A stretch of DNA of 64,000 nt. Origin: a virus. Its lineage: Duplodnaviria; Caudoviricetes. Shown in pieces: positions 29,071-63,790 of the stretch. Where the stretch lies: IMG/VR virus record IMGVR_UViG_3300042260_000337; one strand, written 5' to 3'. The notes beneath the pieces are model-generated. The model had not been told where the DNA came from. It searched no databases and saw nothing but the letters and a program-made list of their open reading frames with translations. How positions within the stretch are numbered: position 1 is the first letter of the stretch; each line of letters starts with the position of its first letter. A program made the position numbers and the translations under genes.

Positions 29071-30396
29071 CTATTTCGCGTAGTAAGCGTGTTCGCCAAA
29101 CGGCGGAACGATACGGTCATTGCCATGGATGACAAAGAGAGTGTCGCAGTAGTGTTCGTCACCCCAAGACCCGTAAGGATATCCATCGGTGAACATGACA
29201 AACTTTTGAGGTTGGATGTCATTTTCTTCCATGAACGTCCAGTTGCACACGAAGTCAGTGCCGCCGCAACCAATAATCTGGTAGTCATTGATTTCATCGG
29301 CATTCATTGGGGTAAACTCTTTGAACGATTCTTCGTATACACGAGTGTCAAAGGTCCATACCCGAAGACGGAAATCTTGGAACTGGGTCATAATTCCTTG
29401 AATTTCGCCCATGAAATCTTGCAGCATATCATGCGAGATAGAACCAGAAACGTCCAGACCAATGCAAACATCGACCATTTGGTCAGGGTCTTGTGCAGGA
29501 AGATAGATTCCCATGGAACGAGACTTTTTGGATTGGCGCATCCAAGTGTAGTCATTTTTGAGGCAGCTTTGAACACTCAGGTTCAGAAGCTCCCGCCAAT
29601 CCATCTTGGGTTCAGTCATGGACTGAATCAGACGACGAATTTCACCGGGGGTATTGCCAGCACCAGCCGATTGAGCGGCTTGCAGAACCGCTTGCCGCAT
29701 CTGGTCTTTGATAGCCTTGGCTTCTTCTTTGGTGACCTTGATTGGACCCTTGCGACCAGTCGGATCGTTTTGCATCTTGCCATCTTGGCCATCGCCATCC
29801 GTGCCTTCGTTGCCGAACAGGTGCATATCAAGAGTCTGCTTGCCTTTGCCTTCACCAGATTCTTTCAGTTTCTGGTAAATTTCTTCGGTATACATACCGT
29901 GATATTTACGGTCATACAGCGCAGATTTCGGCATCTTACCGATGTTGCTTTCAACGCAACCTTGGTTGACTTTGTAGTCAGCAGCAACGTTCCAGAGTTG
30001 TGGGTCACGGTCGGATTCAGCATAGTCAAACAGACGACCACCCTCGCCGCAGTGCGAGTAGACACAGTGAAGAACTTCGTGACCAACCACAAAGTCAATT
30101 TCTTCTGGCGTCAACGTGCGGAAGAAGTTGGGGTTGTAATAGAAATGCTTGCCATCCACCGCAGCCGTAGGACACCAGCCCTCGGTTTCAACCAGTTTCA
30201 GACGAGTTGCCAAGGTGCCGAAGAACGGATGCTTGATAAGCATACGAACACGACCAGAAACGATCATTTCTTTGACCGCAGCATCGGTATATTCAAATAC
30301 TACGGGTTCAGGAGAGTCTTTGTCAATCTCAATGCCGTTCTGTTCAAGAACATCATCAAGAAGATCGTCAAGCGACTTGGCGGGTTGATTCGACAT
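29071..30396 (-). CDS. Zn-metallopeptidase-like + VWA domain protein (partner of MoxR-like ATPase)
   Basis: PTAAVDG, HEVLH (HExxH), LDVSGSI (MIDAS DxSxS), GGTDF, FTDG; start refined to ATG 30396. Confidence 0.88.
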   Translation of the reverse strand: MSNQPAKSLDDLLDDVLEQNGIEIDKDSPEPVVFEYTDAAVKEMIVSGRVRMLIKHPFFGTLATRLKLVETEGWCPTAAVDGKHFYYNPNFFRTLTPEEIDFVVGHEVLHCVYSHCGEGGRLFDYAESDRDPQLWNVAADYKVNQGCVESNIGKMPKSALYDRKYHGMYTEEIYQKLKESGEGKGKQTLDMHLFGNEGTDGDGQDGKMQNDPTGRKGPIKVTKEEAKAIKDQMRQAVLQAAQSAGAGNTPGEIRRLIQSMTEPKMDWRELLNLSVQSCLKNDYTWMRQSKKSRSMGIYLPAQDPDQMVDVCIGLDVSGSISHDMLQDFMGEIQGIMTQFQDFRLRVWTFDTRVYEESFKEFTPMNADEINDYQIIGCGGTDFVCNWTFMEENDIQPQKFVMFTDGYPYGSWGDEHYCDTLFVIHGNDRIVPPFGEHAYYAK

Positions 30397-30426
30397 GGGT
30401 ATAACCTTTCTTGTTTCTACTCTAAC

Positions 30427-30456
30427 ACTATACCCCATATGGGCACGAAGAGTCAA
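30427..30456 (-). promoter_or_regulatory. Sigma70-like early promoter
   Basis: TTGACT, 18-nt spacer, TATAGT. Confidence 0.6.
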
Positions 30457-30497
30457 GTTTTATTTGTAAGTTACTAAGTAAAGTAACTTAGAAAAGA

Positions 30498-30521
30498 TTA
30501 GAGGGGCCGAAGCCCCTCTAA
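30498..30521 (-). terminator. UUCG-capped hairpin / terminator
   Basis: ttagaggggc-cgaa-gcccctctaa; C(UUCG)G loop on the minus strand. Confidence 0.6.
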
Positions 30522-30525
30522 GTTA

Positions 30526-31653
30526 TCAGGCATTGTGGGCTTCAATGATCAGCTTGCCATACTTCTTGAAGAAGTCACCGATGCAAGGAACCTTGCGGGG
30601 TTCAAGCGGCAGCTTGTAGACCTTGAGTGCCGTGCGACCGCCAAGGACAGTCATTTCGGTATCAAAGTTGTCCATCATGAAGCGGAAGAAGTTTTCTGCC
30701 ATTTCATAGAGTTTGTCCATGTCGTTCTTGCCGTTCTTGTCAACGAACTCTTTCAGTTCGTAGCAGAGCGAAGCAGTCAGCGAGAACATCGCGGAGATTT
30801 CGTTGCTACCCTTGGGCAGATGCTTCACACGACCTTCGAGAATGTCGGTCGGGTTGGGCATAGCCTGTGCCATCTGGCGGTGAGCCATGAACTTGGTTGC
30901 AACACCATCGCCAACCGTGCCAGCAAGAAGATCGTGCAGACGATGGTTGCTGATGTTTTCGTTTTCTTTGGGCAGAAGGTCCGAAACGAAGGTCCAAGAA
31001 CGGGGGGTCGAGAACGACCGCGATGCCGTGCGAGGGTCAAAGTTGAACAGGTCCATCTTGTTGGAAGTCAGGTAGCCGATGACTTCAGGGTGGATGCGAT
31101 GTTCCATCGCCCAAGTCTGCCAGTCTTCAAAGTCCACAGTGATTTCAAGGTGGACGAAACGGTTGGCGAGAGGCGAAGGCATACGATATGCAACACCACG
31201 GTCGCTTTCACGGTTACCAGCAGCAACGATAAGAACGTTGTCAGGCAGCTTATACGAACCAAGGCGGCGGTTCAGAATAAGTTGGTAGGCAGCAGCTTGC
31301 ACCGACTGAGGCGCTTGGTTCATTTCGTCAAGGAACAGAACCACATTTTCATACTGGGATGCCAGTTCTTCATCGGGAAGGTCGGAAGGTTCCGCCCATT
31401 CCATCTTGCCCGTCACTTCATTGAAGTGAGGAATACCGCGAAGGTCGGTCGGCTCCATCAGAGCCAGACGCAAGTCGATCATGTAACCGTTGATTTCTTG
31501 CGTGATGCTTTCAACGATTTCGGACTTGCCGACACCGGGCGGACCCCAGATGAACACGGGGCGCTTGCGGCGGAACGCATACGCGATTTCAGCTTTCAGA
31601 TCGCTCGGCTTGGTGAGACGAACTTCCATATCTGCGGTAGAAACTTTAGCCAT
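30526..31653 (-). CDS. MoxR-like AAA+ ATPase
   Basis: GPPGVGKS (Walker A), LFLDE (Walker B), AAGN, PLANRF, TPRSW. Confidence 0.93.
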   Translation of the reverse strand: MAKVSTADMEVRLTKPSDLKAEIAYAFRRKRPVFIWGPPGVGKSEIVESITQEINGYMIDLRLALMEPTDLRGIPHFNEVTGKMEWAEPSDLPDEELASQYENVVLFLDEMNQAPQSVQAAAYQLILNRRLGSYKLPDNVLIVAAGNRESDRGVAYRMPSPLANRFVHLEITVDFEDWQTWAMEHRIHPEVIGYLTSNKMDLFNFDPRTASRSFSTPRSWTFVSDLLPKENENISNHRLHDLLAGTVGDGVATKFMAHRQMAQAMPNPTDILEGRVKHLPKGSNEISAMFSLTASLCYELKEFVDKNGKNDMDKLYEMAENFFRFMMDNFDTEMTVLGGRTALKVYKLPLEPRKVPCIGDFFKKYGKLIIEAHNA

Positions 31654-31694
31654 TGGTGAGAACCTTTCTGTTTTGTCTCGGTGATTACTGTTTG

Positions 31695-58068: not shown

Positions 58069-58081
58069 ATTGTGAAGTTGA

Positions 58082-58157
<76 letters not shown>

Positions 58158-58191
58158 ACAATGAACTTCACATACTTATTTATCTTTTATA

Positions 58192-60889: not shown

Positions 60890-60966
60890 TGGTGGCCCTA
60901 GTGGGACTCGAACCCACGACCAATAGTTTTAGGGACTGCCGCTCTAACCAACTGAGCTACAGGGCC
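60890..60966 (-). tRNA. tRNA with CUA anticodon (amber-suppressor-like; C33, C28:A42 mismatch)
   Basis: GGCCCTG/TAGGGCC acceptor, GCTC/GAGC D arm, GCAGT-CCCTAAA-ACTAT anticodon arm, GTGGG-TTCGAGT-CCCAC T arm, A73, CCA. Confidence 0.7.
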
Positions 60967-61249: not shown

Positions 61250-61275
61250 GTCAAAATGTGATTTCATTTTGTCAA

Positions 61276-62120
61276 GGCTGAGATTATACCTTGAGGTGAG
61301 TGCCTTCGGTCATTACCCAATCCCTTGCGAGGATGGTTCTACCTTTATCCACAAGAGTCGTTTCCGATCATCTTGTATCACTCAATGCGGCCTTTGTTAG
61401 AGAGTGGCATTTCTCTCGTCGCATACTGCTATTCATCCTTCCATCTTCCGCCAGCCTTGCGGGCTGTTCAAGGTCGCTAAACCCTTACGTCTTCTGTCCG
61501 AATAATCACGTCCACCTTGCGAGTTTCAGTGAACCATATTCTCTTGCGAGTATGGTATTACGCATCTTTCACAGTATACCGAGGTAGTCTTTCGCTTTTG
61601 TTTCAATAATAGGAGTTGAACCTACAATCGTTCTCTTAGAAGGAGACTGCATTACCATTATGCAATATTGCGAACCTATTTCGATGTGCTACCTCAGTTG
61701 CACCATACCTTGTTAGATACAGTATACAACACACCGACTGTCTTTTGCCTTGCGGGCTACTCAACGTCTTTTCAAGTATCCGGGGCCTAACCCTTCCACT
61801 CTCAAGATGCTACTACGCCTTTCCTTGCAGGGTCAGACAGTGTAGCTACCTGTTAACCTTCAGTATTCGTTAGTTTGGCTGAAAACTGTTCGGACGCCAA
61901 TCCTCTTACCACTCACCGACTGGCTCTGTGGCTATCCTTTCAGACAGTTCTCCTAACTTACTACCTACCGCCTCTCTACAGACGGGACTTGCTTTCGGTT
62001 TAATCCGAGTCAAGTCTGGTTCAGGCTTGTATAGATGGACCATCACTGGCGCAAGTTTATAGGAAACCTTGCTTTGGGCGTATTACTACGCTTACCCTTA
62101 TGGACGCTATACCGCCCAAT
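61276..62120 (-). ncRNA. Large ornate ncRNA, GOLLD-like, with embedded tRNA-like domain
   Basis: About 845 nt with no plausible coding, own promoter, five C-GCAA-G tetraloops, many helices, GAGUAGCCCGCAAGGCAAAAGAC and a 3' UAAUCUCAGCC; tRNA-array context. Confidence 0.7.
61601..61672 (-). tRNA. tRNA-Arg(UCU)-like domain embedded in large ncRNA (defective acceptor end, no CCA)
   Basis: GCAT/ATGC D stem, CT-TCT-AA loop, GTAGG-TTCAACT-CCTAT T arm; top two acceptor pairs mismatched. Confidence 0.6.
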
Positions 62121-62545: not shown

Positions 62546-62697
62546 CAATCAAGTCTCCGCTGATAATAGTATTTATCATTCAGAGACGACTGTATTGGCT
62601 TTCCAGCTACCTTAGAAGCAAGCCATATTGGACATTGCTTTACATCACAACAGCTTTGAACTGAGAGATTGTGGCAACTAAGACTGGAAACTTGTGG

Positions 62698-62756
62698 TTG
62701 GCTCTACACGCATCGCCCCGTGCGATTTAACTGACTAGGGTTATTGTCAGGACCGA
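62698..62756 (-). ncRNA. Two-hairpin RNA motif, copy A
   Basis: TCGGTC-CTGAC/GTCAG-TTAAATCG-CACG/CGTG-TAGAGCCA. Confidence 0.5.
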
Positions 62757-62828
62757 AATAGGGTGGAAACGTCATTACAAGTAACGCTTCCGTTACTATC
62801 TATTATCATCCCCGATAGTGGGGGTATT

Positions 62829-62904
62829 TGGCTCCCAGTGCAGGGCTCGAACCTGCGACATTCTGATTAACAGTCAGACGCTCTACCAACTGAGCTAACT
62901 GGAA
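62829..62904 (-). tRNA. trnN: tRNA-Asn(GUU)
   Basis: CT-GTT-AA loop, G73, CCA. Confidence 0.95.
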
Positions 62905-62913
62905 ACATAGTTT

Positions 62914-62971
62914 TTGGCTCTATCCCAACGCAGGAGGACGATTTAACTGCTATATGCCGTAGCAGGACCGA
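62914..62971 (-). ncRNA. Two-hairpin RNA motif, copy B
   Basis: TCGGTC-CTGCTA/TAGCAG-TTAAATCG-TCC/GGA-TAGAGCCA; late motif TGATAAATA about 20 nt upstream. Confidence 0.5.
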
Positions 62972-63013
62972 GATTCTTGCGTCTTACGTATTTATCATAC
63001 TGCGCTAGTATTT

Positions 63014-63090
63014 TGGTAGGGGATGAGGGACTTGAACCCCCAACCGACCCGTTATGAGCGGGCAACTCTGACCAATTGAGCTAATCCCCC
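63014..63090 (-). tRNA. tRNA with CAU anticodon (Ile2 more likely than elongator Met)
   Basis: CT-CAT-AA loop in a CCCG/CGGG stem, CCA; not an initiator (no C1:A72 mismatch, no three G-C pairs). Confidence 0.85.
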
Positions 63091-63250
63091 ATATCTGTTT
63101 TCAGCTACACACAACACTTTCCAACCCGTAAAGGCTAGTGTGCCAAGTGTGTATGTGAAAACAGATTTTGTGCAATCAGGTCTTACAGGTTTATCACCCC
63201 GCCTGATCTTGTTTTCAAGCCATCATCGCTTTCGCTAGGCCAGCATCGTA

Positions 63251-63279
63251 AATTTTCAAAGAGCGTGGAACACCGTTCC
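63251..63279 (-). promoter_or_regulatory. rrn-type antitermination element (boxB-like hairpin + boxA)
   Basis: GGAAC-GGT-GTTCC hairpin followed by GCTCTTTGAAAATT, resembling rrn boxA TGCTCTTTAACAATT. Confidence 0.65.
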
Positions 63280-63291
63280 GATTACTTGTTT

Positions 63292-63517
63292 CTTATATCA
63301 CGTTCGTTTTTCGTTGTCAAGAACTCTTTTCAACTTTTTTCGTCCGCGTTTCAGTTCCGAGCATCGTTCCTTTGTGTCCCGCTCTATGTTCTTAACTTAG
63401 CAAACTTTGTTTTCTTTGTCAAGAACTTTTTTTCTTTTTTTTCACGGCTGCTTCTGGTTACTAGCCTTAGCCCTTCCGCGATATTCTTAACTTACCAAAC
63501 TCTGTTTGATTCGTCAA
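63292..63517 (-). promoter_or_regulatory. Three tandem sigma70-like promoters with A-rich UP elements
   Basis: TTGACG-17-TAAGTT (63517-63489), TTGACA-17-TAAGTT (63422-63394) and TTGACA-17-TATAAG (63320-63292), each preceded by A-tract-GTTC. Confidence 0.8.
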
Positions 63518-63526
63518 GAACTTTTT

Positions 63527-63790
63527 TCAGGTATCTGGTTCGGCCACCAGCGGGAGAGATTTTTCCCAAAATGTCAGCATACCAGTATCACAAAGAGTAA
63601 CCAGATGCCGCCCGATCTTTATTGCCTTATCGGACTTCCTGAATGTGACTATCGGAATCGAACCGAATACTAGCGTATAAAGTATGAAACAGGGACTCCA
63701 CAGAGGCTAACTATTTGCCAAATAACTTTCATCACAGAGAAGCTAACCATGGCCTCTCACGAGTTTATTACGTAACCACCCGATGTTTCC
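63527..63790 (-). ncRNA. Candidate structured RNA
   Basis: ATCTGGTT/AACCAGAT, TCAGG/CCTGA and GTCCGAT/ATCGGGC helices; T-arm-like TCGG-TTCGATT-CCGA; own promoter. Confidence 0.35.

Follow-up and report, generated by a model that had tools for sequence, protein, structure and literature searches.

A Three-Way-Junction RNA Family Absent from Rfam at the Front of tRNA Operons in Large Uncultured Phages

Introduction

Since species 1 and 2 of T4, it has been asked what stable RNAs other than tRNAs do in the tRNA operons of phages. The question is raised again by the stretch of phage DNA analyzed here (64,000 nt, further called the window), in which a short motif occurs on either side of a tRNA-Asn gene: what kind of RNA is this, and what could it do? 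The window derives from a virus record of 202.7 kb that is 56% complete and contains 40 tRNA genes. The DNA polymerase of this phage is T4-like, with those of the jumbo phages Phosso and Atu_ph07 as nearest relatives (46–49% identity).

A first-pass annotation had considered the motif a structured repeat with a CCA-like end, possibly a new small ncRNA, a ribozyme-like processing element or a tRNA mimic. The motif belongs to a real, well-defined RNA family that is absent from Rfam, of a kind that is known but unexplained, and that is carried by large uncultured phages at the front of their tRNA operons. We estimate at about one half the probability that it is a stable small RNA, cut from the tRNA precursor, that works like T4 rnaC and rnaD or the stable RNAs of T5 and binds some partner. 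As the family is tiny and has a sharp consensus and more than 80 natural variants, it is an unusually easy experimental target.

Two Copies Around tRNA-Asn in the Window

The tRNA operon of the window is read on the minus strand. Its features are listed here from the promoter side onward.

63300..63530, minus strand: tandem sigma70-like promoter repeats (repeat families D1 and D6; putative function), upstream of boxA
63254..63264, minus strand: boxA of the rRNA-operon type, found by pattern match
63093-63166: long hairpin with 20-nt arms (90% complementary), directly upstream of tRNA-Met at the operon head
63014..63090, minus strand: tRNA-Met(CAU), the first tRNA of the operon
62977..63008, minus strand: motif 3, a hairpin RNA (CUAGCGCAG-hairpin-GUAAG-N-CGCAAG)
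62908..62970, minus strand: copy B of the family (53.7 bits with the covariance model)
62829..62904, minus strand: tRNA-Asn(GUU) with encoded CCA, between copies A and B
62692..62755, minus strand: copy A of the family (47.9 bits with the covariance model)
62596..62690, minus strand: motif 2, an unannotated conserved RNA of ~95 nt, directly past the tail of copy A
61275-61737, minus strand: GOLLD RNA (193 bits), with a tRNA-Arg(UCU)-like domain embedded at 61600-61672
60890-60966, minus strand: tRNA of the amber suppressor type (anticodon CUA); several related arrays carry one too

A 127-codon ORF separates motif 2 from GOLLD, and the other tRNAs follow downstream. Among the promoter repeats, TTGAC is found at 63517 and 63422, with a third repeat near 63320. 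The exact boxA pattern occurs twice in the whole genome, once per tRNA array: the first site heads the array of the window, while the second (G000:56980) lies inside the other array, before a dense tRNA cluster. Further phage tRNA operons led by an rRNA-type boxA are present in the related loci L167-L186. These boxA-led operons suggest that antitermination by host Nus factors is in use. A literature search gave no description of an rRNA-type boxA leading phage tRNA operons.

Both copies of the motif are indeed present around tRNA-Asn, on the minus strand and well above chance: the pattern matches at 62723-62754 and 62939-62969 (minus), two observed against 0.00 expected in 100 dinucleotide shuffles, and copies A and B are the only two in the 202.7 kb. 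Their stems pair as had been proposed, with CUGAC/GUCAG in one copy against CUGCUA/UAGCAG in the other, and CACG/CGUG against UCC/GGA. However, neither copy folds better than its own shuffles (z = 0.96 for A and 0.33 for B), so that the exchanges between two copies in one genome, which had been taken as strong evidence of a selected structure, are weak evidence alone. For this reason homologs are needed, and it is the 84 distinct ones that establish the structure.

Extent of the Family

A covariance-model search for homologs, which had been proposed together with the motif, recovered a large family. In combination with pattern scans of viral and metagenome contigs, it yielded 119 copies, 84 of them distinct, in 85 phage or metagenome loci; this count leaves out two divergent variants that were found later by descriptor. 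Members score 33–66 bits and the background stays below 21. There are 1–4 copies per genome, and the six complete carrier genomes measure 195–519 kb. Since the polymerases of carrier phages are only 24–59% identical to that of the window phage, the family spans distant phage lineages.

Neither copy matches Rfam 15 at the gathering threshold or at E ≤ 10, which, with the large covarying family, bears out the proposal of a new small structured ncRNA. In 16 homologous loci only tRNA, GOLLD and skipping-rope RNA were among the Rfam matches listed. A blastn search of the members against cultured phages gave chance matches only, and no credible match of the covariance model turned up in Phosso, Atu_ph07, Vibrio 2.275.O, XbC2, RaK2 and the tRNA regions of T4 and T5. 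In bacterial genomes a stricter pattern had no matches; a looser one had two, both on tiny MAG contigs with tRNAs, which are probably mis-binned phage DNA. The full pattern with the C that the window has at position 4 was not matched outside the window: this position is A in 78 of the 84 members, and C in the two window copies only. Long tRNA-like inserts, sought up to 120–160 nt in the loci studied, were not credibly present. No description of the family was found in the literature, where it may be an unnamed entry among the 8,495 candidate RNAs that Fremin et al. (2023) derived from IMG/VR (PMC10690425).

Some members deviate from the common form. In L026 (376-449), L040 and L045, the insert of the first hairpin contains another core-like run (GCUAAGUCC), which may be a nested copy of the module. 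At L114:6800-6883 and L053:1064-1134, deviant copies near tRNAs score 18–21 bits and have an altered 3′ strand or core; they possibly represent decayed copies or a sister family.

Secondary Structure

The consensus of the family is Y-GGU-A-[P1]-YUAAR-UC-[R P2 Y]-A-GA-GCC, behind which comes a tail like AAACACAU. Judged from the alignment, the predicted fold is a well-supported three-way junction, which consists of a 3-bp closing stem GGU/GCC (P0), a 1-nt linker, hairpin P1, the YUAAR loop, a 2-bp stem, a bulge and hairpin P2, with a core length of 49–69 nt. In copy A, G1 is 62754, P0 pairs 62754-62752 with 62702-62700, and the linker C is 62751; P1 (62750-62731) is followed by the core UUAAAUCG (62730-62723), P2 down to 62706, the bulged A at 62705 and the 3′ tail (62699-62692) with its conserved C at 62694. 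In copy B, G1 is 62969, P1 covers 62965-62947, the core 62946-62939, and P2 extends to 62922; CC ends at 62916 and the tail runs to 62908, with the conserved C at 62910. tRNA-Asn starts 11 nt past the CC of copy B. A plus-strand reading was rejected, every copy being co-oriented with the tRNAs.

Covariation is strong in P1 and P2: 96.4% of the cells pair and nine pairs are changed on both sides, against 15–44% pairing in slid controls, with the reservation that members were partly chosen for these stems. Searches that left one block free gave the same anatomy. The ends of the YUAAR loop covary as well, with U-A in 45 and C-G in 38 of the 84 members and single G-A and G-G variants, which fits a lone-pair or T-loop-like turn; modules of this kind usually hold a distant base or a ligand in place (PMC2615604). 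The change to AC/GU in two variants, together with U-G wobbles, supports pairing of the 2-bp UC/GA helix, and what lies between this helix and P2 (A, AA, U or AG) behaves as a bulge.

The 3-bp closing stem is weak. P0 was picked by RNAalifold and is invariant in the seed alignment, which is partly a product of the member search. Its two G-C pairs do not covary, so it was assigned by its energy and because the alternative was excluded. This alternative, an extension of the first stem by CGGU/AUCG across a C/UUAA internal loop, was part of the original proposal and is disfavored: besides not being the choice of RNAalifold, it is ~2 kcal/mol less stable than the junction in both copies, and it is broken in 7 of the 84 members, compared to one for the junction. 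Two further variants, in which UC/GA is replaced by AC/GU, likewise keep the junction and break the extension.

The loops of P1 and P2 are complementary to a limited extent. The mean Watson–Crick run is 2.88, against 2.52 after partner swap (p = 0.001) and 2.66 after letter shuffle (p = 0.04). Some members reach 5–6 pairs, four or more Watson–Crick pairs occur in just 15–18%, and there is one compensatory exchange (L056 vs. L099). Mimicry of an anticodon loop was considered and rejected, as the CUUGAA loop concerned is confined to one subgroup and lacking in the window copies.

The 3′ End and the Position Among tRNAs

A conserved 8-nt tail directly follows GCC. Directly past CC, 79% of the members have A, 12% U, 7% G and 2% C, whereas position +6 after CC is a C in 91%, against 12% after the CCA of true tRNAs. 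Moreover, fewer than 8 nt, the length of the tail, hardly ever separate the element from the next tRNA, while spacers between tRNAs peak at 5–8 nt. Because of this conserved C and this minimal spacer, the tail belongs to the element and the resemblance to CCA is incidental; in addition, the 5′ GG offers this CC a pairing partner. The CCA-like end of the earlier description is thus not upheld, and with it falls the support for a tRNA mimic.

All 119 copies are structured non-tRNA units within a tRNA operon and co-oriented with it: their loci contain 921 tRNAs on the same strand and none on the opposite one. On the 5′ side, the spacer to the CCA of the upstream tRNA peaks at 5 nt plus a pyrimidine, matching the spacers between tRNAs, and G1 occupies the place of a tRNA's first base. 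An upstream tRNA lies within 12 nt in 43 of the 101 copies that have one. Other copies are in tandem or far from any tRNA, as expected of a free-standing RNA gene.

In the boxA-led operons, the first copy is at most two tRNAs away from boxA in 16 of 16 cases, against 4.5 expected under random placement. These 16 non-redundant operons remain from 21 regions, after removal of three without an upstream boxA match and two near-duplicates; they are related and not independent, so common descent inflates the figure, although the neighboring tRNAs differ. The distance between copy and boxA is ~200–1300 nt, and additional copies are found in tandem or up to ~8 kb downstream.

A Stable Trans-Acting RNA as Preferred Explanation

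The near-invariant junction and tail, together with arms that are free to vary, suggest a binding surface for one partner. Each copy would be the gene of a small (~60–80 nt) stable trans-acting RNA, present one to four times per phage at the front of a tRNA operon led by boxA. The RNA would be co-transcribed with the tRNAs from the tandem sigma70 promoters and freed by host tRNA-processing nucleases, with RNase P cutting before the next tRNA and an RNase E/Z-type enzyme cutting in the A/U-rich spacer after the previous one. If RNase P does cut there, exactly the tail would be left behind on the RNA. Once released, the RNA may fold compactly, with P1 and P2 side by side and often tied by 3–6 loop-loop pairs. 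The junction and tail would present the surface for one host protein or ribonucleoprotein, on which the RNA might act as decoy or modulator, and the variable arms would serve as scaffold. If it does bind a host factor, the family would point to a new RNA-based means for large phages to steer translation or defense.

Other structured non-tRNA RNAs occur within phage tRNA operons, namely RNAC and RNAD (species 1 and 2) of T4 and the stable RNAs I, III and IV and rna1-3 of T5, all of which have no known function; for RNAC and RNAD of T4, this and their transcription from the tRNA region are described in PMC3014915 and PMC9697503. T4 rnaD shares with the family a near-invariant frame around a variable arm; it follows tRNA-Arg(UCU) and has a hairpin that precedes UAAGUCG. 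Unlike the family, the T4 and T5 RNAs are larger (73–172 nt). Homology was rejected, the best E-value of a model search with filters off being 0.8, and the UAAG of rnaD is no YUAAR loop, as its U is paired in a stem in the rnaD alignment (A-U, G-U or G-C). In T4 rnaD (L159:1554-1672) and its homologs in L161-L166, the variable arm is long, and most of the homologs have no CCA end.

Small structured RNAs that occur among phage tRNAs also include the bacterial and phage Y RNAs YrlA and YrlB. In contrast to these, the family has no long terminal stem and no tRNA-like T/D module. A gene for Ro60 (TROVE) is absent from the seven phage genomes searched, i.e., the 56% complete genome of the window phage and its six complete relatives (G001-G006); a Ro60 might still be supplied by the host.

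Alternative Explanations

The main rival, possible but unlikely, is that the family forms a new class of small self-cleaving ribozymes that process phage tRNA precursors, with a hammerhead-like junction geometry, a different core and a 3′ tail. By analogy with hammerhead position 17, the cut would most likely fall on the single nucleotide that links P0 to P1. Type III hammerheads have junction strands of 7, 3 and 1 nt, and so does the family when the G-U pair is counted as the base of P2; further common traits are a U at 16.1, an A or C at 17, an R-Y pair that closes stem II (P2) and a probable loop-loop contact, the complementarity being slightly above controls. The hammerhead core CUGANGA/GAAA is lacking, however, and YUAARUC and AGAG are found in the great majority of the 84 members instead. 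At the equivalents of G5, G8, A9, G12, A13 and A15.1 the family has A, U, C, A, G and G, its covarying pair is 3-7 and not 3-8, it has a conserved 3′ tail and no Rfam match, and a simple 2-bp helix with a variable bulge describes the behavior of its junction bases. Size, multi-stem junction, conserved core and covariation agree with the criteria for ribozyme candidates of PMC10085705, but ten similarly selected motifs failed to cleave (PMC10085705). Theta ribozymes provide a precedent in phage tRNA arrays (PMC10879173), and if the family self-cleaves, it would add a new ribozyme class and, next to theta, a second way in which phage tRNAs are processed by ribozymes. Yet only the 43 of 101 copies mentioned above have an upstream tRNA within 12 nt, and 93% of the tRNAs encode CCA, most of them adjoining no family copy.

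Known ribozyme classes did not fit. Like theta ribozymes, the family's small RNAs adjoin phage tRNAs, and the window phage has a tRNA with a CUA anticodon. In HDV-like and theta ribozymes, the catalytic C at the start of J4/2 is invariant and a U inactivates (PMC10879173). At the corresponding position, 45 of the 84 members have U, 38 have C and one has G, and covariation supports two simple hairpins instead of the nested double pseudoknot (P1, P1.1, P2, and P3). Inspection of the family found no partner for an HDV-like P3 or P1, and neither HDV nor pistol could be fitted by eye in a circularly permuted form. The CUAAG of some members resembles the antigenomic HDV J4/2 strand. Pistol, twister and hairpin ribozymes gave no Rfam match; a pistol-like UUAAAUNG run and a hairpin-like GUC, compared manually, are local look-alikes only.

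The position at the front of the operon fits a cis-acting role equally well as the preferred trans-acting RNA. A cis-acting precursor element, i.e., a nuclease roadblock, a processing signal or a nascent-RNA element for elongation at the front of an antiterminated stable-RNA operon, is quite unlikely overall. The proximity to boxA in all 16 operons speaks for it, and a nuclease could be stopped by a compact junction whose flanks are conserved. Conversely, the ~200–1300 nt to boxA mean that it is not part of a nut-like site, additional copies lie in tandem or far downstream, and the position may be inherited among related operons.

A structural analogy leads to a third option, which we consider improbable: an RNA resembling the SRP Alu domain or the tRNA elbow that would dock on the elongation-factor site of the ribosome and tune host translation. 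The Alu core resembles tRNA and forms a three-way junction of family C, in which a short conserved loop separates two hairpins whose loops pair in a pseudoknot (PMC4231752). The present family likewise combines a compact three-way junction (as in helices 2-3-4 of SRP Alu) with a short conserved inter-hairpin loop and, in some members, with predicted loop-loop pairing, which reaches 5–6 pairs and includes the compensatory exchange mentioned above. SRP Alu has UGU between helices 3 and 4, and a helix 5 (PMC4231752). The family, in contrast, has YUAAR as its loop and lacks UGU, helix 5 and an S domain, its loop pairing is variable and weak or absent in many members, it is a stand-alone multi-copy gene, and it has no match in Rfam, SRP families included.

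Finally, a CCA-ending tRNA mimic, aminoacylated or acting via a tRNA-like 3′ end, is highly improbable: its slots in the array are tRNA-like, 79% of the members read GCCA and YUAAR is T-loop-like, but the closing stem has 3 bp instead of the 7 bp of an acceptor and consumes the CC, 21% of the members have a base other than A after it (U, G or C), conservation runs 8 nt beyond, and neither ARAGORN nor Rfam calls a tRNA.

Companion RNAs and Other Features

The family is accompanied by other non-tRNA RNAs, i.e., GOLLD and motifs 2 and 3. Motif 3 is located a few bases upstream of a family copy in 15 of 16 distinct examples (e.g., L022, L026, L034, and L057). It has a conserved internal loop with GUAAG, which comes after the hairpin, opposite CA. 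From their sequences, motif 3 and the three-way-junction RNA may be related modules, or motif 3 may be a 5′ partner. Motif 2 ends in GCCA and has a 7-bp acceptor-like stem resembling that of the adjacent tRNA-Asn; inside it are a T-loop-like hairpin and stems that vary. It has no Rfam match, and homologs are found at L002:4800, L101:10192 and L133:4584. GOLLD is also present in the related loci L169 and L178, and the tRNA array of L169 additionally contains a skipping-rope RNA (RF02924; L169:6419-6510).

Two more features of the window were observed outside this operon front.

58071-58172: 24-nt inverted repeat (88%), the arms of which overlap and extend both ends of tRNA-Thr(UGU)
29071-31659: two pairs of long opposite-strand ORFs with nearly full overlap (461/462 and 375/374 aa)
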